Part shown: positions 1 through 64,000 of the stretch, piece by piece
Layout of the letters: each line of letters starts with the position of its first letter
Position numbering within the stretch: the stretch's first letter is position 1
From: Eledone cirrhosa
Taxonomy: Eukaryota
DNA length: 64,000 nucleotides
Assembly (NCBI GenBank): GCA_964016885.1
Contig: OZ024743.1
Location: 59,892,001 to 59,956,000 of the forward strand
Direction: 5' to 3'
Made by a program: the position numbers and the translations under genes
Notes under the pieces: model-generated
What the model saw: only the letters and a program-made list of their open reading frames with translations
Told to the model about the DNA's origin: nothing
Databases searched by the model: none

Positions 1-1158
1 CCGCTTGGATCAGGAGCTCCAACCCAGATCCGGACCAGTTCCCCTGCTTTTCTTTTGGTATTTCGATTAGTTTGGTGTTGGCATCGATGCCGGCGAGGAC
101 GGCAGCCATTAGCCAGTGAATTTCGATGGCCGATGGAACGTGGGTGACCCTGATCTTTACGAGTCTCTGGTCACAATAGCTTGGGACGACTGTCACGTCA
201 TCGCTTATTAGTGGGGCCATGGAGTGCTCTCTGGCCTCCTGTGGTGTTCCAAAGAACACGTCCACGGTTCCATATTTCTGTCCACGTTCGATGTTGGATT
301 TTTTTGCCCACACATGACCAAAAGCTTTTTTGGATTTGGGACTTGGATGCCCGTTCCACTCGGCGCGATTTTATGTTAATCGTCCGATAAAACACGGTGC
401 ATAGGCGCCTATGCTCTATTTTATTATGTGGCGCCGGGGTGGGGGTGGGGGTGACCTTGTACCCATCTTTCTTTTCCATTCTCTTAGCTTCATCTAATTC
501 CTCCTGAGTTTCCCAGATTGTTTCGCATATTTTGGCTCCTTTGGCAACAAGGTGTTCTTATCCGCATTGTTGTTGTTGCTGTTGTTGTTATTGTTATTTT
601 TGTTATTGTTATTTTTAGTTTCAGTTGCGGTGGTAGTGGCGTCAGTGGTGTTCGGTGTGGCTGTGTCGATTTTGGGTGAATCCATTTCGATGTCACAAGA
701 TATTAATTTTTTTTTTCTTATGTTTCTGTTATCGCTGTGGTGATGGCGGGGGTGGCGGCTTCAACACCTGCAGTCATTGGTAATTGCGGGAAATAAATGT
801 CTGCATGAGACAAATTTAAATTATTGCTACTGCTTATATTTTTAGTGTTGGCAAACGTAGTAATATTTACAATGGTGGTGTTGGTGTGAGGTGTTAGTTT
901 GTGAGGAAGGCTCTCAGCTACTTGGTGTAGCTGTGAGTCGTCCATGATTTGTTCAAAGAAATGTTTTGTTTGATAATTATAAAAGTTTAAATTTTGGGCT
1001 CAAAGCCCCAATATTTTTGAGTGTCCTTTTCAGAAATCAATGTATGTGCACCTAGAAACAATTAACAACAAAATTCTTCCATAAATGGTAATTTTAAACA
1101 AATGAAAACATCAAACCTTTGCTGAGTTCACGATGATACGATTTCCTAGATAGGTCGG
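1..1158 (-). mobile_element. Tx1-clade non-LTR retrotransposon copy B (5' leader and frameshifted ORF1; continues left of the window)
   Basis: Colinear with 5952-7116. ORF pieces 718..945, 494..685 and 198..479 match the ORF1 N-terminus (ESLPHK.TPHT, HRRLCTV.YRTIN.KSRRVERAS) in different frames. The 5' end abuts (AAT)n at 1159. Confidence 0.9.
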
Positions 1159-1159
1159 C

Positions 1160-1200
<41 letters not shown>
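1159..1200. repeat. (AAT)14 tract separating the two Tx1 copies (tail/target site)
   Basis: Perfect AAT repeat between the 3' end of copy A and the 5' end of copy B. Confidence 0.95.
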
Positions 1201-1202
<2 letters not shown>

Positions 1203-1467
1203 TTTTCTTTATTAACCACAAGGGTTCACATAAAGTAGACATTAAGGACAGTACAGGACAATACAGGAGGGTACAAATGGGCATTTCTGCGTGTAAAAGA
1301 ACAGAGGTTGAAATAAAATGACAAAGAAAAAAAAAAAAAAAAAAAAAAAAAAAATTCCCCAATAGGGGGGAGACTTCCAAGGGACATTTGTGGAGAAAGC
1401 CCATTAAAAGACCACAGTGGCCCTGACCACCAGGGCAAGTGCCCTCTCCCAGTTTTCCACCTTTAAT

Positions 1468-4921: not shown

Positions 4922-6907
4922 TTACCTTACTTCTCGTAGGGGAAGGACGGCTTTTCCATCCTTTTCACTGCTTGTGGCCTCCTCAGGAAGGATGTCCTTA
5001 TAAATCCTCCTGGAGAGTGCTTGTCGGAAGTCTCCGATGTCTTTGGGGAATTTTTGTTTTAGTGTCATGTACGTTTTCTGTGTGATGCAAGTGATTTGTA
5101 TGTGTGGAGGTGGTGTGAATTTTGGGGTTGTTGTGTAGTCTTTTTCTGTGATGCTGGTGTTGTGTTGGATGTAGTGTAATAATTGCTTGTTGTTCAAATT
5201 TAATGCTGTGTAGTGTGTATCGTTTTGGTTGTTTTGTTTTGTTTGCGTTTTTTGTGGGTTTGTTTCTGTTTCGAATTTTGGAGACTTTTGTGGTGTAGGT
5301 GATGGTGGTGATGGAGTTAATGATGGTGATGGTGTTGGTGTTTGGGTTGATGGGGTTGGTGATGCTGGTGTGGATGGTGGCATATCTGTCCTAACTTTTT
5401 TGTTTCTTAGTTTATTTGTTTCCCTCTGTATTTTGTTTTTGGAGGGGGAAGGAAGAGAATTTTTTCTTTTTTGGTTTCTTCTTTTTTTTCCGGATATCGT
5501 TTCCCACTCCTCGTCGTCACAATCTGTCTCCAGTTGTGATAGGCCGGGGAGTGGAAAATCCTCCACAGCCGTTAGTTTTGGTTGTGGTGTGGTGGATGGT
5601 GTAGGCGCTGGTGCTAGTTCTGAAGCGTTGGGTGGTGGTGGTGTTGGTTTTGCTGGTGGTGGTAGTGGTGTTGGTTTTGCTACTGTTGCTGGGGTTGTTG
5701 CTGTTATAGTTGCTTCTGTTGTTGCTGCTACAGTTGTTGCTGGCATCTCTGCTACTGGTGGTGTTGATGGTTGTGTCACTGGGGTGGGTAGGAGAGGTGG
5801 CCTCAACCTTTTAGTCTGAGGGCAGAAATCCCTTAGGTGGGTTCCTTCACCACAAACGACACACCTAGGTCTTCTGCCCTCGACAATTACCGTGAGGTGG
5901 CTGCCGTCAGTGAGGTCTATTACCTCTGGGATCTCCTCAATGCTTTTTTGGTCCGCTTGGATCAGGAGCTCCATCCCAGATCCGGACCAGTTTTCCTGCT
6001 TTTCTTTTGCTATTGTTATTATTTTCGTGTTGGCCTCGATGCCGGCGATGACAGCCGCTATTAGCCAGGGAATTTCGATGGCCGGTGGAACGTGGGTCAC
6101 CCTGATCTTTACGAGTCTCTGGCCACAATAGCTTGGGACGAGTGTGAAGTCGTCACTTTTTAATGGGGCCATTGAGTGTTCTCTAGCCTCCTCTGGTGTT
6201 TCAAAGAACACATCCACGGTTCCATACTTTTGCCCACGTCTGATGTGGGTTTTTCTTGCCCACACATGTCCCAAAGCTTTTTGGATTTGGGACTCGGATG
6301 CCCGTTCCACTCGGCGCGATTTTACATTTATTGTTCTATACGACACGGTGCACAGGCGCCGATGCTCCATTTTATTAGGTGGGGGGGTGAGGCTGACCCT
6401 GTACCCATCTTTCTTTACCATTTGTTTGGCATTTTCTAAATCTTCTTGAGTTACCGTGAACGCTTCGAATTGTTTTGCTACGATGGCGAAACTGAGGGTC
6501 GGTTTTATAATGTCATTGTTGTTGTTGTTGCTATCGTTAATATTAATTTTATTTTCAGTTGTGGTGGTGGTGACGTCAGTCGTCTTTGGTGGGGAAGAGT
6601 CCATTTTGCTTGATTTCATTTCGACGTCACGAGTTAATTTATTTTTTTCTTCTTTTGTTTCTGTTGTCGCGGTGGTGGTGGTGGTGGTGGTTGTCGCGGT
6701 GGTGGTGGTGGTGGAGGGTTTAACACCTGCAGTCATTGGTAATGGCGGGAAATGAATGTCTGCCTGAGTAAAATTTAAAATATTGCTACTGCTTATATTT
6801 TTTTTTGTGTTGGCAAACGTGGTAACATTTACAATGGTGGTGTCGGTGTGAGGTGTTATTTTGTGAGGAAGGCTTTCAGCTGCTTCGTGCAGAGGGGAAT
6901 TAGCCAT
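4922..6907 (-). CDS. Tx1-type ORF1 (nucleic-acid-binding/gag-like, 661 aa)
   Basis: CX2CX4HX4C knuckle (CVVCGEGTHLRDFC), Pro/Thr-rich linker, and basic W-x4-KKRR motif. Ends 34 nt upstream of the ORF2 start. Confidence 0.9.
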   Translation of the reverse strand: MANSPLHEAAESLPHKITPHTDTTIVNVTTFANTKKNISSSNILNFTQADIHFPPLPMTAGVKPSTTTTTATTTTTTTTATTETKEEKNKLTRDVEMKSSKMDSSPPKTTDVTTTTTENKININDSNNNNNDIIKPTLSFAIVAKQFEAFTVTQEDLENAKQMVKKDGYRVSLTPPPNKMEHRRLCTVSYRTINVKSRRVERASESQIQKALGHVWARKTHIRRGQKYGTVDVFFETPEEAREHSMAPLKSDDFTLVPSYCGQRLVKIRVTHVPPAIEIPWLIAAVIAGIEANTKIITIAKEKQENWSGSGMELLIQADQKSIEEIPEVIDLTDGSHLTVIVEGRRPRCVVCGEGTHLRDFCPQTKRLRPPLLPTPVTQPSTPPVAEMPATTVAATTEATITATTPATVAKPTPLPPPAKPTPPPPNASELAPAPTPSTTPQPKLTAVEDFPLPGLSQLETDCDDEEWETISGKKRRNQKRKNSLPSPSKNKIQRETNKLRNKKVRTDMPPSTPASPTPSTQTPTPSPSLTPSPPSPTPQKSPKFETETNPQKTQTKQNNQNDTHYTALNLNNKQLLHYIQHNTSITEKDYTTTPKFTPPPHIQITCITQKTYMTLKQKFPKDIGDFRQALSRRIYKDILPEEATSSEKDGKAVLPLREVR

Positions 6908-7116
6908 TTTTTTTCAAAGAAATTTTTGGATAATAATAAAAGTTAAAATTTTGGGCACAAGGCCCCAGTCTTTTTGGGTGTCCTTTTCGGAAAACAATGT
7001 ATGTGTGCTTATAAACAGTTTACAATAAAATTTTCCATAAATGGCAATTTTTAAACAAACGGAAATAACAAACCTTTGCGGAGCTCACGATAATACGATT
7101 TCCTACGTAGGTCGCC

Positions 7117-7161
<45 letters not shown>
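7117..7161. repeat. (AAT)15 tract shared by the 5' ends of the Tx1 and R4/Dong elements
   Basis: Perfect AAT repeat between two divergently oriented elements. Confidence 0.95.
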
Positions 7162-10100
7162 CAAACACTACATTACAAAGAAACTTATGCTTATTCATTT
7201 TTGGGGTTTTTTCTGCCTGTTTGTTTGTTTGTGTTCGTCTACAGCGTGATAATGCCGCACAAAAGTCACGTGGAGTGACGAAACTACCGGAGACAAGTAA
7301 TTCACCGGTGGTTATGTAACCATACATTCGCCAATCCTCGATAAGAGTGTTTAAATGTCGAACCTAAGCAGTTCGAATAACGGTGAAATGGAGACTAGAA
7401 TGTCATGTGACAGACTCTCACCCAACAGGTGCTCCCTGGCTCAGCAGCAGGGACCTGGCTGTCAACCAAATACTGCTGGTGTCGGAGGAAGAAGAAGAAG
7501 GAAAGGGACCAGAACCAACTAGACGAAAGAATTGAATAGAACTGTTATGCAATGTTACCTGAAGAGTAACCCCAAGAAGAAAGGCTATAGGAAAAGGATG
7601 CATAACATCTGGAACGAGATTGGTCCATTTAAATTAGATGAACAAAAACTGGCCGGGCAGGCTCGGGTAATAAGAACTAATGGGTGGATAAGCGAGCTGG
7701 AACTGGAGGAACTGAGCAGAGAGATTAGCTTGGAGATGGAGGGTGGAGTATGCCAGGCAAACGAGCCAGTGGGAAATGAAGGTGAAGAGGTCGAGAGAAC
7801 GGAGGAACCACCCGAAACAGACAATGATCTGAATGCTGAGATAAATAATACCTGGAACAGAGATACGGCCACTGAGGAGATGAATGCTGACGGGCTAGGA
7901 CAAGATTTGGTAGATATCCTAAACTTAGTGGTAGATGAATTGAACAATGATAGTGGGAGACCTATTAACCTAAGATTTGTAGACAGGAACAAGTTAAAAG
8001 AAACAACAGCTAAGGTAAACAAAGTCATCCCATACCTTGAGGCGAGCAGCCTTCACCAGTGCAACAATATCCTCAAAGCAACAGCAAATACGGTGAGGAA
8101 ACTACTTGGTATAAAAGCGAGAGGAAACAACAGACAAGAAAGAGCAGAGCATTGGTGGAAGAAACGACTGAGTGGTCAAATCAGGGAAATGAGAAATGAC
8201 ATTGGAAAGCTTGAGTCCCTACTGAATGGGACACTAAACAACATAGACACTAAAAATAGACTGGAAATAAAGTACAAAACTAGGAGGAAAAAGCTAAATA
8301 TTATCATAGAGGAACTGAAGCAATGCATTGTAGCAAAGAGTGCAAAAATCAGGCGAAACGAGAACAGAGTCAGTCAGTATAGACAGAATCGTATGTTCGA
8401 CAACAGCCAGAAGATGCTGTTTGAACAGCTTGAAGGGAAAATAAGAGGCAACGACTTGATCCCTGAGGTGGAACAAACTAAAACATTCTGGAGAGGAATA
8501 TGGGAGCAGGATGTTAAACATAATGACCAGGCAGTGTGGATTGAGACAGTACAGAAGGAGATCAGTGAACAGGCACGCCAACAAACTGATTTGAGTATCA
8601 CAGTTGAAACTCTTAAGGGGCAGGCCAAAAAACTAACCAACTGGAAATCACCTAGCCCAGATGGTGTGCAGGGGTATTGGATTAAAAACATAACATCCCT
8701 CCACCCGAAACTGACAACCATGTTCAATGACTGCTTGATGGCAGGTGAGGTACCAGAGTGGTTGACAAAAGGTACCACAGTTCTGATAATGAAAGACCGA
8801 ATCAAGGGTAATGATGTTACCAACTATAGACCTATCACATGTTTGTCCGTAATGTGGAAACTGTTGACAAGCATTATGTCTGAGGAAATCTACCATCACC
8901 TCCACACAAACAACTTGTTACCGGACGAACAGAAAGGATGCCGAAAGAAGTCACGTGGTACAAAGGACAAGTTACTTATTGATAAGATGGTAATGAGGAA
9001 TTGCAAGAGGAGACACACTGGTCATGCCATGGGATGGATAGACTACAAAAAGGCATTTGACATGGTGCCTCATTCTTGGATCACCAACAGCCTGGAGATC
9101 TTCAAGGTGGCAGATAACATCAGGCAGTTGTTGGGCAAAAGTATGAAGTCCTGGGAAACAGAGTTAACATCAACTGGAGAATCCTTGGGAAGCGTGAAGA
9201 TCAAGAGTGGTATCTTCCAGGGAGATTGTCTGTCCCCTCTGTTGTTTGTCCTTGCCCTGATGCACTGACCAGTGTACTGCGAAAAGTGAGAGCAGGATAC
9301 AGGTTGGGAAAGGGAGGCCTTACCATCAATCACCTCCTCTTCATGGACGATCTTAAGCTCTTCGGGAAGAGTGAGAAGGAGTTGGATTTGCTTGTTGACA
9401 ATGTCCGTATTTTCAGCAATGATATATGTATGCAATTTGGTATTAGTAAGTGTGGAGTCATTGAGATAAGGAGGGGTAAGTTGAGCAGAAATAACGGAAT
9501 CCAGATACCAACAGGTGAGATGATTAAAGAAATTGACTCTGAAGAAGGATACAAGTATTTGGGCATTCTGGAGGCTGATGACATCAAGAACCAAAAAAAT
9601 GAAGGAATTGATAAGAACTGAATACTTTCGGAGAGTAAGGAGCGTATTAAAGTCACATCTGAACAGTAGGAATGCCATAGTGCAGTAAATTCCCGAGCTG
9701 TGTCTATTATTAGGTACAGTGCGGGAATTCTGAGATGGTATGTTGCTGAACAAAAAGAAATGGATAGGAAGACTAGGAAGCTATTGACTATCTACAACAT
9801 GTTCCACAAGAGGCATGATGTCGATAGACGCTACTTAAGGAGATCTGAAGGTGGAAGAGGTCTTATCAGCATAGAGGACTGTGTTCAGAGTGAGAAAAAT
9901 AACCTACACAAATACGTGACTGATAGTAAGGAGCCAATGCTCAGAACTGTACTGAAGGAGGGGACAATAGGCCAGGGGATGTCCAAGGAGGAAATAACAT
10001 CAAGGTGAAAGAGCAGCCTTCAGGAAAAATCCCTTCGTAGTACCTTCTTTGAGAAAACTGAACTTAGAGATCCACAGACATGGAACTGGTTGAAAAGAGG

Positions 10101-10684
10101 AGACCTTAAAGACGCTGGAGACATGATGTGATGGGCAGGGTGATCAACTGGCACCTATGCAAAGTAAACAATTTACCACATTCTGAGAAATGGTATGAGC
10201 ATAAGCTAGAGGCGGTGATAGAAAACGATCAGGTGAAGGTGCTGTGGGATTTTAGGATACATACGGACAAGAAACTGGAACACAATAGACCTGACCTGGT
10301 GGTTGTGGACAAAGAAAAAAGAACGTGCCTGATTGTGGATGTGGCCTGCCCATTCCACACGAGAGTGCAAGAGAAGGAGAGGGAGAAAATTAACCGATAC
10401 CAGGACTTAAAGAGGGAGGTAAAAAGGATTTGGAACTGCCATGAAGTCAAAGTGATCCCGATTGTCATAGGCGCACTAGGGACTATCTCAAAAAGTTTCC
10501 AGGGATGGTTAAAGAAAATTGGCCCCTTCACGCTTTTTGGAACGCTTCAAAAGGCATGCTTGCTGGGAACAGCAAAACCCTCCGATACGTACTAAATATC
10601 TGAGGCTGCAGGTAGTGGCTTGATATTCATTTCAACAAACTTTCCAGTTAACTAACATCAATGACTGAGACTCAAAGAGTAATA
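7162..10684 (+). mobile_element. R4/Dong-clade non-LTR retrotransposon, near full-length, decayed
   Basis: Single-ORF layout with an R4-type N-terminus (VMQCY, WWKKRL), RT, and a C-terminal PD..D/E restriction-like endonuclease. Ends in ...GAGTAATA. Confidence 0.85.
7355..10595 (+). pseudogene. R4/Dong RT-RLE polyprotein, disrupted
   Basis: ATG at 7355 is in frame with ORF 7532..9268 across a TAG at 7520. RT motifs WKSPSPDG, YRPITCL, DYKKAFD, GIFQGD, and LFMDD after a frameshift near 9265. Further breaks near 9600, 9686 and 10006. RLE motif NRPDLVVVD...IVDVACP...EKINRY. Confidence 0.88.
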
Positions 10685-11257
10685 CTTGAACACTTCTCTA
10701 TCCAAGATTTTTAATCTCTGTCTAAATGAAAAATTTACCATTATATCTAATTTAGATTCTATAATAAATAGACGCACTGACTTGTTTTCTATCTGCTTGC
10801 ATAAATTCCACAAAACATTCCACAAAGTATACAGCTAATATCCAAATCTTTATCAATTTAGAATCTTTTTCTGAAAGGCACATATATATATATACACTTC
10901 TTTAAAAATATATCCATCTTTCTTCCTTATTTCAAAGGTTTTATTATACATTATACAATACTTGTTACTCATTCTATATCGCTCCTATTTATCACTTCCC
11001 TTTCTTCTCTTTTTCTTTTAATGTCTAACCCCTAATCTGTACCTTTTCTCACTGTTGTCTGACATAGAATCAATTATTACATAATACAATACATTCTTAC
11101 TCTATATCACCTTGTAAAAATCCTTCGTAAACATAAACATTTTTTTTACTTTAGAATATTCATCCTCAATTCATTATTCTTTTCTCCCTTTCATCTAACT
11201 CATTCATGCTCATCTCACGATATATCCTTACTTAAATTATCTGTTGTTCTTTTTAAC

Positions 11258-16236: not shown

Positions 16237-17475
16237 TGGATCATCCAGCGATTTTGGGTGCAGTTACATCCAATCTTGCTAAACCTCTAGCCACAATATT
16301 CAACCTATCATTTGCTACCGGAGTTATTCCTGCCGACTCGAATGTAGCTACAATTTGCCCTATCTTTAAATAAGGCGACAGAGAAGACCCGGGGAACGAC
16401 AGACCCGTGAGCCTCACCTCAATTGTCTGTAAGGACTTGGAATCTCTAATCAAGCGGGAAATGATGGCTCATCTTGCGTCTTTTACTGCCATCTCACCAT
16501 CTCAGCACGGTTTCATCCCGAAACGTTCCTGTATCACAAACCTACTCGTCATAGAAGAATGGGTGACGAGGATAGTGGACGATGGAGATGCGGCCGATAT
16601 TATCTTTCTCGACTTCGCCAAAGCCTTTAACTCTGTCAACCACCGCCTGCTCCTGTATAAGCTCAGCAACTACGGTCTCCATGACTCGATTATAAAGTGG
16701 ATTGGATCATTTCTTGAGGGTCGTACTTGCAGACTTCGGATCAATGGCAGTCTGTCATCGGGGGTGGGTGTAGGCAGTGGCGTTCCCCAGGGCTCTGTTT
16801 TGGGCCCAATTCTCTTCCTTCTATACATCAACGACATGCCGGGCGTGATTGGTGGAAACGTGCTCCTATTTGCAGATGATGTGAAAATGGTAGCCCGAAG
16901 GCTACCATTTGCCAAACTCACTCCAGAAATGTTCAGACCTCTCTATGTCGCCCTCGTGAGACCGCACCTAGAATATGACATCCAAGCATCAAACCCATAT
17001 CTCATCCGGGATATCCATCACTTGGAGAGATTCAACGACTAGCGACTCGGATGGTACTTCATGAGCTGCCCTACGAAAGCCGGCTGCAGAAGTTGAACCT
17101 CTTATTCTTAAAGCGTCGACGGCTAAGAGGTGATCTCATTTTGGCTTACAATCTCTTCAATGGCCATTACGATCTCCCTCAATATCTCCTATTCGCTCCG
17201 GCACTTGAGAGGGGTCTACGTGGATATGACAAAAAGCTATTTCACCGCCGCTTTCGCATAAACAGATGGAAAGCTGCTTTCTCGATCCGCATCTCTGGAT
17301 CCTGGAATCGGTTTCCAGAAGAGGAGTCAGCGCGCCAACCCCGCAACAATTCAAGGCGAAATTGGACCGGTGTTGGAACACTGTGTTTCCGACTGTGTAA
17401 ATGTTGCCCCTCTCCCCTCCTTACATAGCATCTGAAGCATCTATGTTTTCTGCCAAATATATTGTATTGAATTGA
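16237..17475 (+). mobile_element. CR1-clade LINE, 5'-truncated with an internal deletion
   Basis: RPVSLTSIVCK, QHGF, DFAKAF, SGVPQGSVLGP, FADD, LVRPHLEY, RRRLRGDLI. Contains in-frame stops and an (ATTGA)-type tail. Confidence 0.88.
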
Positions 17476-30125: not shown

Positions 30126-30166
<41 letters not shown>

Positions 30167-30580
30167 ATACTTTTGGAGGGTCATGTTGCCAATAAGAAAC
30201 ACACGCACCAGTTGCTTTCATTTCAGTTTATTGTAAATTAAATTTAGGAATTTAGGAATTTATAAATTTCTGGTTGGCTGGTTGGTTCAAACAACCAGAT
30301 GATTGTTCATATATTGTCCTCTGCTGTTAAGAATAGAATCCGAGTAACTGAAGAGGTCACAGAATGTGTGTCGAAAGAACTTTGACAATATATGAACAAT
30401 CAGCTGGTTGAGGAACCAACCAACCAACCGGAAATTTATAAATTTAATTTATAATAAATTGAAGTGAAATCAACTGGTGCGTGTGTTTCTTATTGGCAAC
30501 ATGACCCTCCCAAAGTATAACAATATCGGTTTCAACACACGTTTTCAGATAAAGAATCTTGCTAAGCAAATTCAGAAACG

Positions 30581-41454: not shown

Positions 41455-41657
41455 GGGCGGTGGATTGGCAGTATCGGTAGAGGGTCGGACGCCATGCTTT
41501 CCATCATAGAGTTACAACCCTTTATTGTCTGAGTTCAAATCCCGCCGAGGTTAACTTTGCCTTTCATCCTTACGGGGTCGATAAAATAAAGTACCAGTAA
41601 TACACTGCAATAATTGCTGGCCTTGTGCCAAAAGTAGAAAAAATTATTGTTATTATC
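41455..41657 (+). mobile_element. tRNA-derived SINE, Meta-like domain family
   Basis: Full head, core and tail. A 3'-only fragment of the same family lies at ~41340-41435. Confidence 0.88.
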
Positions 41658-46308: not shown

Positions 46309-46645
<337 letters not shown>

Positions 46646-47166
46646 AGGTTTTTAATGTCTATCTCTCCTACCCCATCTTGTCTGTGTGTGTTGTGTGTTG
46701 TCTGCTTAGTTTGCGCATGCTTTATATCTGGGTGAGTTTGGGTGTTCATATTTATTTATTTATGTGTTTATTTACCTGTAACTCGTTGGTTGTATGTTCT
46801 ATCTGTGTGTGTCTGAATTGTTTTCGTAGTTTAGTTTTTGTGTGTGTCTGTATGTCTTCATTTTGTCCTTAATTACTAGTTGTGATAAAACAATGTGCCT
46901 CGTCCAGAGTTTACACCTACACTATCTACAACAAATTAAGAAGACTCAACTAACCAAAGGACTAGCTGATATACGCAAACGAACACTCATTCTAAACATT
47001 AAAAAAAAAATTACATAGAATTAAGCAAATAAAAAAATTTGTTTTGAAAGATAATATATATATGATATATATTAATTAATATATATATATATATAACATT
47101 TTCTATACCTTTCATTTAAAAGAACCGAAAAGTGAAGAAATAATGTGTCTGCCAAATTAAGATAAT

Positions 47167-52974: not shown

Positions 52975-55900
52975 CTAGCAGAGGTACCCGGCATTGCACG
53001 GTATAATTCTCAATGGAGTAGTCGTTCAAATGAACCGAAAGAGTTCGCGACTATAGAAGTAACAATTTATAGGTGTTGACCCTAAAGCTGGCCTTTGAAC
53101 GTTCACTGCAAAGGCAAATATGTTATGTCGTTCCCCACTCGAGAGCACCCAATATGTAGTTGCACGGTTCTTCTAAATTAAGCCCTCCGACCGTCAACGT
53201 CTGACCCTGTGAATTGTTAATCGACATGGCGAATCTGAGTCGGAGAGGGAATTGCAGCCTTCTAAATGTGAAAGGAATGTCTTACCGGATGGAATGAGAG
53301 GTAACCTTGGTATGAAGACAGTATCCCCCTTACCACATCCTGTAATTATTGTTGCCTCAATAACATGAGGCATCGCCTTTTGGATGACCAGACGCGTGCC
53401 ATTGGAAAGCCTTCGGGGTTCCAAATTTCTGAGGAGCATGATAGGGGCACCTTTCTTTAGTCGCAATAAGGGTGGTGGCAATCCGGGAGGGTCTAGGGAG
53501 TTAAGAAATGTTGTGGGGTAATTAACAACTTCGTCCGGATCAGCCATAGAGTCAAGGGACTTGTAGATGTGCAGGTTTCCAGGCAAGCACAGCATGAGCT
53601 GTTCATTGATGCTTCCAACTATGTGGTTTTTCGAAGCCAATATTGCGCGTTCACACAACCACTCTTGATTTGTGTAGTTCTCCTCAAGATTAGGAAAAAC
53701 AGACGTCCGTAACTCAGCAATTGACTTAACGCATCTGCAAATCCCTATGATCTCCACTGTACCATCTCCGTCGAGTGGGAGTTTGCCATCTGCCAACAAC
53801 AAAATGACAGCAGCAAAACGCGCTGATATCTCATCACCTTGCAGTTGTACACTCATGTTTTTTGTAAGCATCAGCCTTCTTACATAACGCCAAAGTGGGG
53901 AGGCCTTAAGGCATGCACCAACCTCATCAGCCCGTGTACCTTTTGGGATTACAGGCAGAGTCTGTCAGAAGTCCCCAGATAACAGGAAAGTGACATCTTC
54001 CATTGGTTCTTGACAGTCCCTGACGTCTCTGAGTGACCGGTCTAACGCCTCGAAAGCCGCCCTGTGGGCCATTGTGCATTCGTCCAAAACAATTAGTAGG
54101 TAGGGCTTTAAAACCAGTGCTTTTCCGGAAGACTTGCTGATATTGCACGTGGATGTCTCAGATGATGCCACGTTGAGAAGAAGACTGAAAGCAGAATGGG
54201 CCGTCATTCCACCAGGCAGCAAATTGTTGCAATGCCGGAAGAGGCCACGGCCAATGCGATGTTTCCGTGTTGCCACACTGCAGCGAGTAAAAGTTTAATT
54301 ACAAATGTTTTGCCCGTGACTCCAGGTGCGTCCAGGAAGAATATACCCCCTCCCCGATTACTGATTGAATCAACGACAATGTTGTAGGCTTGTTTTTGAT
54401 CCATTAGAAGTTTTGGTTCATTCTCTTCAACATAACTTTTGAGTTTGTCGACATCATATGATGTTACACGTATAATGTCGTTAGGAATGTCAGAAGCCCG
54501 TATTTCTCCAAGACATCTTCGACCATTGAAGCCACTCTGTCTTCAATATCGATCATAGCTCTGTTATATATGGCGTCTGAAAAGCCGACATCAAGTTTTA
54601 AGATTGCAATTGAGCGAGACGACTATATTCGTCTGAGAAATCATCTTTAAACTTTTGCAATATAGAGTTATGATCCCTCCATTCACAGACGTGCAAGAGG
54701 ATAGCAAAAAGTTCTCTTAGACTACGGGATGATTGTGAGATGGCAGCTTCCGTCAAGGTTGCATCCCATTGTGCGTCATCTTCTAAAGGTCCGCGCCTCA
54801 AGCAGGCTTCCCTGTACGTTCCGCAGGCGTATCCATCGACGGTTCTCAGATGAGTGAAGCTAGTCTGCCCTCTTACCTCATGAAACAGAAGTCGCAGGTA
54901 GAAGCATTCGTGTTGGGTAGGGTTGACCGTATAAACTCGCCCAAGGCAATTGTCGAATTTGATGACTGGATGTCCTATCTTCCTTCGTAGCCATTTTGTC
55001 CGTTTTCATGTATGGTAAGACGGTATTTCAGAATACAGCAGAGTTCGAGCGAAGTCATCGTGTTGACAAAGTTTGAAAAAAGCGGTGGGTGTAGTTTCTT
55101 TGGTGAGATCGCTAGCTGAGCAGCTGTTGCATCATTGAAATACACCCGTTGACCGTTTTCAAGGTGAACGGCAAGTTGTTTAATGACGGGGTGTCGTTGG
55201 TACAGTGGGAAGCTAAAAACGCGCTAAAAGGCTTCATTGCTGCTAATGTATCGGCCTGCTTGGTAGTCAGATACCTCGTCTCTATTGTCTTCATGGCGAA
55301 GACCAGAGACGGTAGCATCCGATCCCTTGTTTACGTACTTACAAACGTATTTAACTGACTTCACTGAGTTGCAAAATTCGACGTTTATATGGGCGTTGAA
55401 CGATTTCAAAAGGAGGGGGCAAAATGGCACTATCCGGCTGTTGTCGATTTCGCGTTCATCAACTTTTGCTGTGAACCACCGTCTTCAGATCTCCTGCGCC
55501 TATACAACGGATATCAGTCACCGCCAGTCTGTGTTTCTTGTAAAAATAGCCTGGAATATCGTTTTGTACACTTTCCGTCGTGTATGCACGGGGACTTCAT
55601 ATTCAGTCAAAATTTCCGCAAGGACCGTGAACCATGTTTGATGTGACTATAGAGAAGAGCTCCTTGTCAATCGACAGATCAGGTAGTTCGACAGAAATGA
55701 ATTTGTCTATGTAATTTGAACTGATTTTTGTAACCAACCAAATCAAGATATGGGCATGCGGCAGCACTCGTTTCTGCCATTCAACCGTGTACATATCGCA
55801 CCTGACATGCCCCAAAACCTGTCCTTTCTTTAATAAATCCATTAATTGGGATAATTTCAGGCGAAACACTCTAGCTATGAGATCGTGCCTGAGTCTTTGC

Positions 55901-58033
55901 GCTTGACCGTGGAACAGTTCGTTTGCAATCTCCGTCCACTTGGGATTGCATGTAAACGTTATGAAAATGTGGGGCGCCCATAATGTCGTACGTGGGCCGT
56001 TGCGTCCTGAGTCCTCTCGTCCATGTATCGGAGTCCCCCTGTGAACGTTGAAGGCAAAATACACACTTGCCCTAAATTGCCTGGGGATACTTCGTTGTTA
56101 ATTCCATCGCGTAGAGGTATGTAGCATTCAGATCGAAGTTTCTTTTGATTTAATTTAATGAACGATAATCTCTCGGACTCCATTTTAACGGCCATATCAA
56201 CAGCAAATTGTTGGAAAAGGTCCCGAGAACGGTGTAGATGTTGAATGAATTTTCCCTTACCATAAATCGGAAAGCGTAGAAATCCATGCAGGTGACAGTT
56301 TTCCTAAGATGTGCCTCACCATTGCCTGCCAAATGTTGAGGAATGCCGAAATGGTATCCGTCCTCGCCGTTGACAAATAGTAATGGATACTGGAGTGCAT
56401 CTTAGGACCTGTGTGTCTCATTGATACGCTGCAATGTGCTGTCTCGGTGCTTTAGAATGAGATCTCTCTTGTCCTGTTCACCACAAATAACCGCAACAAT
56501 TTCATTACATGTTGGTGCGTTGAACCGACCAGCGTGTTCTCCAGATGGCCTTCGGTCAGTATGTATGACCACACTAAAGCTTTGGTCGGTAGCTGTTTCC
56601 AAAGCATACTTGAAACTGCGAACATAGCTGTTTTTTACGTGAAGCATTTCATGAAGTTTTATTATGGTTCCAATGTTTAGTTTCGGACGAAATAGAGTTT
56701 CTCATCTCTGCCTGCTCCTGATAGTTTCCAACGAAGTATAACTGTAGAAATTGAGGAACCTTTTCTGCCAGAGGCTGAATAGAACCAATCAAATGGTAGA
56801 TCTGCCCCTGGACCTTGAAAGTTGGCATGAACCCACGTACCGAGCAAGCTTTGCTCCGAAGGATGTCATCTGAAACGCGGAATTGTAGGGGCGGATATTA
56901 CGCAGAAACTTTGATGATTCCTCCGTCGTGTCTGTCAAAAGGAGTTGCAATGTGTCTGGAGGGTCGTGAATAGGAGGTAGTCAACATTTACCGTTTGGAC
57001 AGCACATTCCATCTCCCTCCCCTGGCCACTTTTCTTACGACAAAACTGGCAAGTAGATATCATTTCCCCAATTTTAATATCTGCATGGACGGCGTAGTCG
57101 GAGGAGTGGTCGTAGTTAAAGGCCTTAAACAACGATCGTGAATTGCAAGTCCTAGAAATGCCATGTAACGATGACCGCCGCTGTTCATTTTGCAGAAGTC
57201 GGCCACGTCGTTGCTCTATGGTTTCGGTATTTCGTGCAGCAGCAGTGGCAGTGGCGTCCCTGCTTGGAAATGCAAAGTAAGTACTACTAATGAAAGGATA
57301 CAGGCAAAAATGGCCGAAAAATCACAGCATGATAAACTGGAACCTTATGACCATAATCACATTAACTAAACCACCTTTAAACCTTTAGTGTTCAAACCGG
57401 CCGAAATTATTTCCCATTCATTTGTTGAAACCGCCCCAAACCACCGTAACTCCCACACTTAAATATCGTTCTAAAAATACCGTAATCAAAATATCTTCAA
57501 TTCGAGATTACTGCGAGATTAGGCCCTTACCACGAAAATTAACACTTAATATAGTTAAACAATTTAAAACAACACGTCTTTTTTTAACGTTGAAAGTAGA
57601 ACAGATTTTTTGTTTGTATCAACATGGCTTATGACAGTAGCGATACCGACTTTCAAGTATTTACACACGACGACATTCAAAATGAACAAGAAACAAAAGA
57701 TAATATTAGTGAATTTACTTCAAATGAATCAGATGTTTACATTTCTGAAATTTCATCCGACGATGGTTGTTGTTTTGAAAGTGAAATCGAAGATCGAACG
57801 TAAACTTCAAAAGTTATCAGGTACTAATACAGTGTTAATGTGAACCTCAATAGATAAGTCGAAGGGAGAGGCTTAAGGGGGCTCCCACAATCGATGTACG
57901 GAAAAATAAAAAAGCCTACGACGCGTAATCGAACTTCAGAAACCTATGTATGAAAGTAGGTGCAAATCGGTTGTAAAATGGAGAAATGCATACGGTTACA
58001 CAAACAGACAGACATCTTATTTATGTATATAGA
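52975..58033 (-). mobile_element. Full-length Helitron (~5.06 kb), decayed
   Basis: 5' A|TCTATATACATAAATAAGATGTCTGTCTG at 58033. 3' GC-rich hairpin TACCGTGCAATGCCGGGTA followed by CTAG|T at 52975. A/T target with no TSD. Confidence 0.92.
53110..57270 (-). pseudogene. Helitron Rep/PIF1-helicase, multiply frameshifted
   Basis: HAGRFNAPT, LPSTFTGG.RYM, FITFTCNPKW, VEWQKR.LPHAHILIW (HUH), HINVE...KYVCKYVNKG, Walker A DAPG.TGKT, LIVLDECTM, GDF, GAPIMLLRNL..LSNGTRL, FIPR. Confidence 0.93.
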
Positions 58034-58775: not shown

Positions 58776-60210
58776 TTATAAGAATCAAAGAACTGTTCAA
58801 AACATTTTTATGCTTACAACTGTTTCCTCCAAACCGAGGTTTGGATACCTCGGAGCAATTTTTTATTGAATGAACACTTATATGACCTCCTTTTCACCCA
58901 AGAGACATACAGATACATATGCAAATATTGTGGGTCAACATTCATTACAGCATTTAGAGTGGCAGTACACACTTAGAGATTACATTCATATTAAAAGATA
59001 CAATCAAAAATACAGGTTAAAATACAACATGAAAATAAGCGGTTATATAGTGCAAAGTTTATATGTGTGGCAAACACGTGCGTCTTGTTTATATAGTGTG
59101 GCAGAGAGGTACGTGTAGTAGAAGCACTTAAGCAGGTAATCAAGAGTGTTAGGTTGGTTGATCTGGTGACGAATTATTTATATGATTGTTATAGTCTGTG
59201 TGTGGAGAAATAATATAAGTATTAAAAATAGTGTAAGCATTAAAAATATTGGAAATGCGTAGCGAAGCGATGATATGGACTTCATGCACTTCGACATTTT
59301 CATAGTCTGGGTAGCGTATTTTTCAGATTATATGCCCCTCACATAATCCACGACTATTCGATATTGGGCGTTTGACAATCCAGTTAGAGAATCGTAGTCT
59401 GATGTTCTTTAGTTCAATACAGGAGGATGTTACGTTTCGAGAATCGACATCGAAATACTACCCGGAAGTGTGGTGTGTCTAAGGGGAGTTTAATGCATGA
59501 GGGGAGGTAACTCCGTGGTTTCTATTACTAACTATTAAAACGTGTCTCAAAATAGACCCTAACTTATAACGTTATGCGCAATTTCTAAAATATTTCTAAA
59601 ATTTAAAGTGTTCTAACTATAAAATAGTCTATTAAGTTCTGCTGAAGATGTTCTTATTATTATGGTGATTAACCCCAATCGTAGAGTGCCACAAATGAAT
59701 ATTATACACGACGAGCGAGGATTCTAAATGAATGATCTCTGAGGTTGCAGTCTACTCAAAGGACCAGGCGCGGTGATTGCAGAATCACTTCAACACACAA
59801 TGATCTCTGGTAAGTTCTGGGTCATCGCTTGCTACATTGGATGTCGAAAGATAATCATCACCAGGGCCGACCAGAGGTCAATCCACAGTCCTCATGACTC
59901 CAATTTTACCATCAAATCATCCATATATGTACAACCCATACGCCACTTGCAATACATTCATTCACTGCACTCAGCGTACCGGTCATACTGCTCATCAGCG
60001 TTACTAGATCAATTGGTTTTTCATTTGTCCAACGATGGTACTTCCTCCGCACAGCACCAACAAGACAATCAATTCAATGCTTAAATTAACTATAGAGTGG
60101 TGTAGTGCTGTTCAAGCGAGTGGATGTTGTCACACCTAAAGTAGAGGTACAAATGGGTATTCCCCCTGTGAAGGGTTCTAGAGGGATGTCGCTGTTTGTG
60201 TTATATTAGA

Positions 60211-61213: not shown

Positions 61214-62731
61214 TTACGTGTGGTTGCTATTCCTATTATTAGGTTTCCTCGTGGACATGTTGTGCGAGATGATGTTGTAGCTATGCGTTTTCTTAGGTAG
61301 GAACTCAATTTCTATATTATGGCCGGATCTAGCTAATGCTTGATTATAATATTGTGAGTTTTTGCTAAATATGTTTGCGTCATAGGATAGATTAGAGATT
61401 CTATTGGATACCCCCTTAGAGATAGAGTTTAATATTGATCTAGGGTGATTAGACTTGGTATCTACGTAAATGAGTTTTTCGTTAGGCTTATGGAAAGGTG
61501 TATATATTTTTGAGTCTAGGTATAGTGTGGCGTCTAGGAAGTTAACAGTTTTAGTGTTTTTGTCCATGGTGATACTAAGGTTAAAGTTTTTGAATGTCTT
61601 GTGCAATAGTTTTCTAGTTCTTTCTATATTAAATTTTCTATATTCTATAAGTAGAAGTGCATCATCGCGGTACAAACCACCGTTGAGGTAAGGGAGGCCC
61701 TTATGGATTTCATTAAGGAGGTATAGGCCGACCAAATCAGTGATCTGCGCCGAGTCACTAGATCCCATGGTTATGTCGAAGTTGTTGTGCGTATCCTTGC
61801 GCGTCCATAGCTGGTTCTCGAAGGTGATTATGGTTTTACGTGCCGCAAGGATGACATCAATCTGGGTTCTAGTCAGGTCGCTATTGTTCATGGCCATGAT
61901 TATTGCCTTATTTAATAGGATAGGGGAAATAGAGGTGTAGTATGAATTGATATCAAATTGAATACATTTGTTGTCCTTATTATTCTTGATATCTTTGAAC
62001 CATTCAATAACTTCACGCGTATTTCCCCATTGTTTAAGGTGTATCTTGTGTTTAATTTGTGGGATGATTTTATCTAAAATTTTCTTGCTGATAATACCAA
62101 TGTCGGACTTGGAAGGGCAGATAAGTCTTATCGAGGGGTTGCTAATGAAGTCCTCATTATGATCCTTCAGAGAGAATCTAGGGGGGTTTGGGGTGTATGG
62201 TTGTGTATGCCTCTGAAATCCTAGTTTAAACACTATATTATATCCCTCTATATTAATATCCTCTACGTTTTTCAAAGTGGTCTTCTTGTAGCTTTTATGT
62301 AGTTCATTATATATAAACTTTCTATAAGTATTATAATATAGGCTGTATATGTTATTAGTTTTATCTGCGTGTACAATAATTTTATTACTAGTTTTGAATC
62401 CATTAATAGAGGTGTTAAGTTTGTTTAAGAAGGTGTTGCTTCTATTATGGTGTTTATTGTATTTAATGTTCTTAACTAGTTTAACTAGGTCATTTTCAAA
62501 GGAGTTAAGTAGTGCGTTATGAGGGGGTCTTTTAAAGGTTTTAAAGCCGAAGGAGTCAAATTTGTTAGTATTATTAACATTGTTAGATCTGTTTCTATCA
62601 TAATGGAATGTCCTCCATCTCACTCTATTGATAAATGAATTTACACTATTGATCAGCAATTTCTCATATCTATTCTTGGATGGTATTGGTATGTTCTTGG
62701 TTGACATGGGGAGTTGGTCTTTGATTAGCAT
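61214..62731 (-). CDS. PLE reverse transcriptase (N-terminal 505 aa of a frameshifted polyprotein)
   Basis: STKNIPIP, FDINSYYTSI, ITMGSSDSAQITDLVG, GLYRDD, NFLDATL, SNHP. This motif set is most like Naiad/Neptune-type PLEs. Confidence 0.88.
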   Translation of the reverse strand: MLIKDQLPMSTKNIPIPSKNRYEKLLINSVNSFINRVRWRTFHYDRNRSNNVNNTNKFDSFGFKTFKRPPHNALLNSFENDLVKLVKNIKYNKHHNRSNTFLNKLNTSINGFKTSNKIIVHADKTNNIYSLYYNTYRKFIYNELHKSYKKTTLKNVEDINIEGYNIVFKLGFQRHTQPYTPNPPRFSLKDHNEDFISNPSIRLICPSKSDIGIISKKILDKIIPQIKHKIHLKQWGNTREVIEWFKDIKNNKDNKCIQFDINSYYTSISPILLNKAIIMAMNNSDLTRTQIDVILAARKTIITFENQLWTRKDTHNNFDITMGSSDSAQITDLVGLYLLNEIHKGLPYLNGGLYRDDALLLIEYRKFNIERTRKLLHKTFKNFNLSITMDKNTKTVNFLDATLYLDSKIYTPFHKPNEKLIYVDTKSNHPRSILNSISKGVSNRISNLSYDANIFSKNSQYYNQALARSGHNIEIEFLPKKTHSYNIISHNMSTRKPNNRNSNHT

Positions 62732-63031: not shown

Positions 63032-64000
63032 ATTTATTATTGAATGAACACTTATATGACCTCCTTTTCACCCAAGAAACATACAGACACATATGCAATG
63101 ACCCAAGAGACATACAGATACATATGCGATGACCCAGAACTTACCAGAGATCATTGTGTGTTGAAGTGATTCTGCAATCACCGCGCCTTGTCTTTGAGTA
63201 GAATGCAACCACAGAGATCATTAATTTAGAATCCTCGCTCGTCATGTATAATATTCATTTGTGGCACTCTACGATGGGGGTTAATCACCATAATAATAAG
63301 AACATCTTCAGCACAACATAATAGACTACTCTATAGTTAGAACACTTAAAATTTTAGAAATATTTTAGAAATTGTGCATAACGTTATACGTTAGGGTCTA
63401 TTTTGAGACACATTTTAATAGTTAATAATAGAAACCACGGAGTTACCTCCCCTCATGCATTAACTCCCCTTAGCCACACACACACTTCCGGGTAGTATTT
63501 CGATGTCGATTCTCGGAACGTAACATCCTCCTGTATTGAACTAAAGAACGTCAGACTACGATTCTCTAACTGGATTGTCAAATGCCCAATATCGAATAGT
63601 CGTGGATTATGTGAGGGCATATAATCTGAAAAATACGCTCCCCAGACTATGAAAATGTCGAAGTGCATGAAGTCCATATCATCGCTTCGCTGCGCATTTC
63701 CAATATTTTTAATGCTTACACTATTTTTAATACTTATATTATTTCTCCACACACAGACTATAACAATCATATAAATAACTCGTCACCAGATCAACCAACC
63801 TAACACTCTTGATTACCTGCTTAAGTGCTTCTACTACACGTAACTCTCTGCCACACTATATAAACAAGACGCACGTGCTTGCCACACATATAACCTTTGC
63901 ACTATATAACCGCTTATTTTCGTGTTGTATTTTAACCTGTATTTTTGATTGTATCTTTTAATATGAATGTAAGCTCTAAGTGTGTACTGCCACTCTAAAT

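Follow-up and report, generated by a model that had tools for sequence, protein, structure and literature searches.

A TTA-sited Tx1-type LINE of Eledone cirrhosa with a 5' leader whose tail resembles the 3' terminus of related elements

Several described retrotransposon systems resemble the element reported here, and the comparisons below draw on excerpts of the cited papers. Microsatellite targets are tabulated for Kibi, Koshi and Dong, with TAA repeats entered for Dong only (PMC3812793). The LINE described here is like Kibi, Koshi and the crocodilian (TTCC)n/(TTTC)n Tx1 elements in having two ORFs, an APE endonuclease with a reverse transcriptase (RT), and a simple repeat at both ends, but its repeat is (TTA)n, and a tail-like 5' UTR module is not described for those elements in the cited excerpts (PMC4494074, PMC3812793). 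Crocodilian Tx1-Mar carries U1- or U2-derived 5' heads that are shared with SINEU, and target preference links that SINE to its LINE (PMC4494074). The present LINE likewise has seemingly foreign 5' sequence in common with a SINE that is likely mobilised by Tx1; however, Tx1-Mar shares the small-RNA head of its SINE (PMC4494074), whereas the leader here shares the 3' tail. The remainder of the leader gave no sign of a small-RNA origin.

A second set of parallels concerns the exchange of element ends. Drosophila HeT-A and TAHRE have 3' promoters and 5' tags: within a head-to-tail array, the downstream element bears sequence taken from the 3' end of the element before it, as would be the case here. 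HeT-A, however, renews its tag from the neighbour in each cycle, whereas the present leader is fixed (bioRxiv 10.1101/782904, PMC5537684). The HeT-A tag is the family's own 3' end, whereas the body and tail of the present leader match their own 3' UTR at shuffle level. HeT-A is also telomeric, which nothing here indicates for the elements described. The leader would work like a frozen 5' tag and conforms to neither a SINE nor a renewed tag of the HeT-A type. Mollusc LP-SINEs similarly testify to module exchange between LINE 5' ends and SINEs, although in the opposite direction, with a LINE 5' end heading the SINE (PMC4758252). Stringent-type SINE/LINE pairs, one monocot L1 lineage among them, have in common a 3' hairpin whose loop is conserved, as seen here, but a second copy of the signal in the LINE 5' UTR is not described for them in the excerpt cited, which also presents hairpin-guided mobilisation as unusual in the L1 group (PMC3747384).

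UTR acquisition is frequent in mammalian L1, and the cited excerpt offers no mechanism for conserved 5' pieces (PMC4758252). The present case points to a concrete route by which LINEs may recruit new 5' UTRs, in which repeated insertion in one microsatellite sets a 3' end before a 5' end and the pair is copied as one. The most useful by-product is that a shared 3' hairpin and target duplications starting (A)TTAT name the likely partner LINE of a SINE. In Octopus vulgaris, 13 recently active L1-Tx1 families are reported and SINEs make up 11.6% of the genome (PMC13282606). Neither the presence of such a tail in a leader nor a SINE-Tx1 hairpin pairing was found described in the literature searched, which held few subscription papers and Repbase entries.

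Host LINE and anatomy of its leader

The window, meaning the whole stretch analysed, comprises 64,000 nt of Eledone cirrhosa DNA (GCA_964016885.1, OZ024743.1, 59,892,001-59,956,000, forward strand), which is AT-rich and abundant in simple repeats. A two-ORF LINE, element A, spans 7116 to 1202 on its minus strand and sits between two AAT tracts (Table 1). Copy B, 81% identical, begins at 1159 directly behind element A, and the two form a head-to-tail tandem in one microsatellite. Each of the three element ends present in the window borders (TTA)n on the sense strand, a target preference observed here over two copies, and contigs and reads from other organisms extend into the AAT repeat to 7131.

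ORF1 and ORF2, the latter with an APE endonuclease and an RT closest to L1, place the element in the L1/Tx1 group; the nearest solved structure to ORF2 is human L1 ORF2p (E 8.5e-52). The narrower label Tx1 is provisional and follows the original prediction and general features of the element; the rows of the tree discussed below are all nameless. No Pfam family was assigned to ORF1 at cut-off. A full scan with ORF1 matched 346 proteins, none of them named, and a word search returned no relative. ORF2 as a query found no relative in genome contigs, and its alignment found none in viral contigs. A broken RT element at 7162-10700 on the plus strand lies back to back with element A, having its start in the (AAT)15 tract that also flanks the latter, and its nearest solved structure is R2; from its motifs and its repeat target, we presume it to be Dong/R4-like.

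Table 1. Features of element A, copy B and the local SINE family (positions in the window)
Feature	Position	Strand	Description
(AAT)15 microsatellite	7117..7161	.	(TTA)n on element sense strand; 5' flank of element A
Leader of element A, 187 nt	6930..7116	-	adjoins (TTA)n directly, as in copy B
Leader body, 135 nt	6982..7116	-	82-86% identical to copy B
Leader tail, ~50 nt	6930..6981	-	C/A tract, hairpin, 13-nt spacer, (TTA)3T
Hairpin GGGC-CTTGT-GCCC	6953..6965	-	sense strand reads 6965-6953
Internal (TTA)3T	6930..6939	-	kept as TTATAATTAT in copy B
22-nt stretch preceding ORF1 ATG	6908..6929	-	
ORF1, 661 aa	4922..6907	-	kin of array Tx1 ORF1, BLASTP E 4e-15 to L114 ORF1
ORF2, 1139 aa	1468..4887	-	APE endonuclease, reverse transcriptase, zf-RVT
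3' UTR of element A	1202..1467	-	ends AACC-CTTGT-GGTT (1226-1214), AATAAA, (TTA)n
(AAT)14	1160..1201	.	separates element A 3' end from copy B 5' end
Leader of copy B	973..1159	-	hairpin GGGC-TTTGA-GCCC at 1008-996
Best SINE copy	41456..41649	+	A/B boxes; tail common to leader; target duplications start (A)TTAT
Further SINE copies	18663, 20440, 39113, 41340	+	same family
Further SINE copies	21377, 47350, 48143	-	same family

The leader consists of a body, in which the internal promoter of the element would likely reside, and a tail similar both to that of the SINE and to the 3' terminus of sister Tx1 elements. As originally predicted, the hairpin lies about 45 nt before ORF1, its end being 46 nt ahead of the ATG at 6907. 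In leader A, it is followed by the spacer AAAATTTTAACTT at 6952-6940 and then by TTATTATTAT at 6939-6930. The prediction that copy B retains the motif also holds: the stem is intact, two of the five loop letters are changed, and the 13-nt spacer again leads to TTATAATTAT. To judge from its sequence, the internal (TTA)3T is likely a remnant of the microsatellite that once separated two ancestral elements.

A pattern with a 3-bp stem, a 5-nt loop, 14 nt and TTA matches seven places in the window, four of them in SINE tails, one at the 3' end of the LINE itself and one in each leader, compared with a mean of 0.2 in shuffles and no match with spacers of 12, 13, 15 or 16 nt. This count is biased, as the pattern was derived from these very sequences, and the array-end profile described below provides the independent test. 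The leader hairpin is no more stable than shuffles (z -0.41 over 29 nt and 0.14 over 66 nt), and the minimum-energy fold of the 66-nt stretch is another helix. Across 15 hand-picked 21-nt stretches, three of the four stem pairs show two-sided changes and stem covariation is 0.317 versus 0.139 in shuffles, values inflated by the choice of mutually related, motif-bearing stretches.

One alternative holds that the hairpin belongs natively to the 5' UTR as a functional cis-element, such as a second ORF2p/ORF1p site or a translational control, maintained or regained by selection with nothing captured. The intact stem in A and B despite the changed loop speaks for this, as does a loop variant at 6957 in 151 of 749 X19 reads, with no stem position among the 40 variants listed. 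However, with about 12-18% of leader positions varying, simple arithmetic puts the probability that an 8-nt stem stays unchanged at roughly 0.2-0.4. A second hairpin is present in none of the 13 array 5' UTRs introduced below, and the (TTA)3 remnant in 3'-end register would be left unexplained. On balance, the native-element reading is improbable. A 21-codon open frame at the start of both leaders was dropped as a coding candidate, since its differences are mostly amino-acid-changing.

Contigs of three other organisms (X1, X5 and X6) and RAD reads of X19 were aligned to 6720-7131, and the records were filtered. The leader joins ORF1 in the contigs of all three: in X6, individual contigs run across 6829-6975 and 6946-7131 and differ little from the window, and these joins are also covered by pieces from X5 and X1. 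Loose ends at 6872-6880 show a variant ORF1 start like that of copy B, indicating that subfamilies differ at these positions.

The leader had also been proposed to spawn short non-autonomous copies; on this reading, transcripts ending at the internal TTA would be inserted by the LINE's own proteins. The leader end does have the same shape as the SINE and LINE 3' ends, and short hairpin-ended tandem modules exist among the array contigs (L126, below), though unrelated to the leader in sequence. Against such a live source, no free-standing leader was found in the 64-kb window or among the X1, X5 and X6 pieces listed, and contigs running into unlike sequence amount to 0.00 of the 1287 placed for X1 (89 of them only in part) and 0.02 of 43 for X5. 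Summed contig depth, which is not a copy number, is 46,000-277,000 over the leader bins and not above that at the ORF1 start (28,000-286,000). The contig data argue against an abundant solo leader family, whereas a small one would be compatible with them; a leader that is presently giving rise to copies is highly improbable. Leader patterns had no match in metagenome or prokaryote-genome contigs. The X19 RAD reads (3949, with 0.68 running on into unlike sequence) were rejected as evidence of solo copies because their ends pile up at AATT sites (6772-6775, 6898-6901, 6947-6950, 7029-7032 and near 7049). Their loose parts agree at only 0.34-0.39, and such pile-ups are as would be expected from restriction and ligation.

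Leader body, leader tail and the local SINE family

Eight stretches of the window belong to one SINE family, which occurs in a long form and in a short form that lacks about 24-30 nt before the tail. The best flanking repeats of seven copies are 10-27 nt long, and in six of the seven they start (A)TTAT no more than 3 nt from the SINE end; for the seventh (20440), the script chose the inner part of a more decayed repeat. ATTAT occurs at 0.3% of window positions. It follows that the ATT 'tail' of the SINE is largely duplicated target, and that the SINE lands at the same type of site, and in the same orientation, as the LINE. The letter with which a target duplication begins has been linked to 3' repeats (PMC6007223). 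Because of these duplications and the shared 3' tail, the SINE is likely, judging from its sequence, to be mobilised by the machinery of a TTA-targeting Tx1-type LINE. The neighbouring LINE at 7162-10700 was set aside as a partner, as no such tail follows its ORF. A SINE-core pattern had no match in genome or viral contigs.

The original description of the leader as a SINE-like module survives only for its last ~50 nt, which are similar to the local SINE; none of the sequences tested aligns to the first 135 nt. The reported GGCG start shared with the SINE is not kept in copy B, which starts with GCCG. The reported similarity to the SINE core dissolves on comparison with shuffles: the tail-less leader is at shuffle level in local alignment to the eight SINE stretches (in the best case, 29 of 300 shuffles score as high), as is the leader body in global alignment to four SINE bodies (best, 45 of 300). 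No significant match to the body was obtained among SINE bodies, its own 3' UTR, the ends of the neighbouring LINE, array UTRs or Rfam. Among 16 comparisons with 3' UTRs, one reached 3/200, which copy B did not repeat.

The leader also differs from the SINE in its promoter features. Scored against the usual A and B box consensus sequences, the best matches have two mismatches each in both leaders, whereas the SINE has one for the A box and none for the B box. T4 runs lie at nt 87, 123, 169 and 176 of leader A and at nt 52, 87 and 176 of leader B; the SINE copy has none. Given the two mismatches in the best B-box match and the T4 runs, a Pol III promoter role for the leader appears unlikely. 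The leader shows none of the boxes, the freedom from T runs or the head and core homology by which a tRNA-derived SINE is recognised, the homology having been judged against the window's single SINE family, but it does show, weakly, a 3' tail in common with SINE tails and with the 3' ends of sister Tx1 elements.

The tail of leader A aligns above shuffles to two of the four SINE tails (1/500 each; 13 and 117/500 for the other two), and that of copy B to one of the four (0/500). With a SINE profile, the leader tails are matched at E 2.2 and 5 for the whole window. The leader had further been said to end in the same signal as the LINE's 3' end. This is borne out in shape, as both have a CTTGT loop and TTA 17 nt after it, but sequence similarity is at chance level, with 155/500 (A) and 488/500 (B) shuffles scoring as high.

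These data bear on the possible capture of a whole SINE, either an ancestor of the local family or a member of an unseen family sharing its tail, whose head and core would since have eroded beyond recognition. The lengths are similar (187 nt versus ~190-212 nt), TTA follows the loop at 17 nt exactly as in the SINE and unlike in the array elements, and insertion of the SINE at (A)TTAT sites would make SINE-then-LINE tandems expected. In addition, the match of four X6 contigs is confined to the 35 nt of 6930-6964, where they show 4-5 differences, and two loose ends at this place read like the pre-tail of the long SINE; by sequence, we take these contigs to be SINE tails, not solo leaders. Against this reading, the leader body stands at shuffle level in both local and global comparison with the one SINE family available, and the leader has T4 runs and lacks a B box. 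It matches no small-RNA family either, a weak argument as Rfam also misses the head of the SINE itself. Rfam gave nothing at gathering score in the window, with matches to leader and SINE at chance level, and ARAGORN found no tRNA in it. Capture of a whole SINE thus appears unlikely.

The hairpin at the 3' ends of sister Tx1 arrays

A scan with the ORF2 alignment yielded 45 loci from prokaryote-genome contigs, 43 of which are in one metagenome-assembled genome, G001 (accession prefix CAXXMW01, labelled Arenicella). Its small contigs hold animal-like DNA rich in microsatellites, in which several Tx1-type families form long head-to-tail arrays; the ORF2 of these elements is 40-44% identical to that of the window. 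In a FastTree phylogeny (28 rows, midpoint root, 19 of the 31 collected proteins used), the window ORF2 falls in one clade with the array elements with a support of 1.0.

The sequence GGC-CT[T/C/A]GT-GCC occurs exactly once in each of 13 ORF2-to-ORF1 spacers, one per ORF1 type seen in G001. It lies within the last ~40 nt of the elements, where a C tract precedes it and a second hairpin and AATAAA follow. The spacers are conserved from the ORF2 stop to the hairpin, and the 5' UTRs that follow diverge. In contig C9, truncated units that start in mid-ORF2 begin about 45 nt after the hairpin, and three array ends in G001 run into non-element DNA just behind it; the hairpin thus marks the 3' end of the array elements. 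In contrast, this stem-loop was found in none of the 39 more distant L1-like loci that had a long ORF followed by at least 150 bases. A scan with the hairpin pattern returned the G001 arrays plus scattered bacterial matches, which were taken as chance. The motif is best read, from these comparisons, as a 3'-terminal signal of this LINE lineage that is common to the SINE. The array elements have the second hairpin and AATAAA, and the leader lacks both; the window SINE and leader have no real match in G001.

A profile built from array ends only offers a test that is independent of the window. At E<20, it gave nine matches in the window. Leader A (6978-6951) is among the top five, with an E of 0.55 over the whole window, and the other four are SINE tails; the leader of copy B was not matched. 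In direct alignment to array ends, the tail of leader A scores above shuffles (2 and 0 of 500). A chance likeness in AT-rich sequence would accord with a hairpin of just 4 bp whose stability is at shuffle level, and with profile E values near 1 for the whole window; moreover, A and B count only once because of their shared ancestry. However, the independent profile places the leader in a top five otherwise made up of SINE tails, an E of 0.55 over 128 kb corresponds by arithmetic to about 0.001 per 187-nt strand, and the TTA register matches exactly. Chance is accordingly a very unlikely explanation.

The arrays show further regularities. The second 3' hairpin changes in sequence between families while its pairing is kept. 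A locus-specific stretch of ~16 nt recurs after AATAAA at array junctions (contigs C3-C19, e.g. L107, L096, L114, L127, L145 and L146), which suggests repeated insertion at one site. At L126:3300-4900 (G001:C5), tandem modules of ~286 and 390 nt both end in the hairpin. In one of them the stem is compensated (GAC/GTC), a B-box-like word is present in the longer, and a 173-nt tandem repeat follows.

A possible origin of the leader tail

The explanation we favour, and consider somewhat more probable than its negation, is that the leader is the fixed 5' UTR of a TTA-sited L1/Tx1-type LINE and that its tail was absorbed once from the 3' end of an upstream, Tx1-dependent element. The original prediction had a SINE captured as 5' UTR after tandem insertion in the same microsatellite. 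This fits only the ~50-nt tail, which traces to a 3' terminus of the Tx1 lineage that the SINE shares, and not the body, which does not match the local SINE.

Elements of this lineage insert repeatedly at one site, as in the tandem of A and B and in the G001 arrays, and repeated insertion brings the 3' end of one element immediately ahead of the 5' end of the next. The donor, probably either a sister Tx1 that also targets TTA or a short copy relying on such an element, would have had an end like that of the SINE, with one hairpin and TTA 17 nt after the loop, and would have lain upstream of the ancestral copy with a few TTA units between them. A transcript started in the donor may have read through the TTA gap into the downstream LINE and been reverse-transcribed whole, or a template switch during insertion may have led to the same outcome. 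The new insertion would thereby have received the donor's last ~190 nt, which would have been passed on with the LINE from then on. We infer that the absorbed piece was kept because it supplied a promoter, which would be needed as the LINE lands in a bare microsatellite; its present role would be that of a leader and of an internal promoter for Pol II. The hairpin inside it may be either a relic or a second, weak site for ORF2p binding, and nothing here indicates that it primes insertion. Points against capture are that no donor was found, that the 135-nt body matches no 3' UTR tested, that the tail match is short and weak (E 0.55 with the array profile, 2.2 and 5 with the SINE profile), and that the leader shows no measurable constraint, differing between A and B about as much as four-fold degenerate sites of ORF1 do (27/186 versus 19/98 differences, p 0.31).

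A stronger version, in which a Tx1 LINE permanently adopted the 3' end of its tandem neighbour as promoter and has a working RT-recognition hairpin at both ends of its RNA, is doubtful. If true, it would represent a frozen, non-telomeric tag of the HeT-A kind in the LINE lineage that drives the genome's abundant SINE.

Other elements were observed elsewhere in the window. Helitron fragments with Helitron_like_N and Pif1 2B domains lie at 53194-56064 (minus strand), and an RT fragment at 16407-17428 (plus strand) is presumably CR1-like, judging from its motifs. An ORF of 505 aa without a Pfam match at 61214-62731 (minus strand), inside an 878-nt inverted repeat region (58952-59828 with 63126-64000), is on the same footing assumed to be Penelope-like. 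A palindromic, MITE-like element of ~370 nt occupies 30159-30526 and has a partial second copy at 46463-46654.
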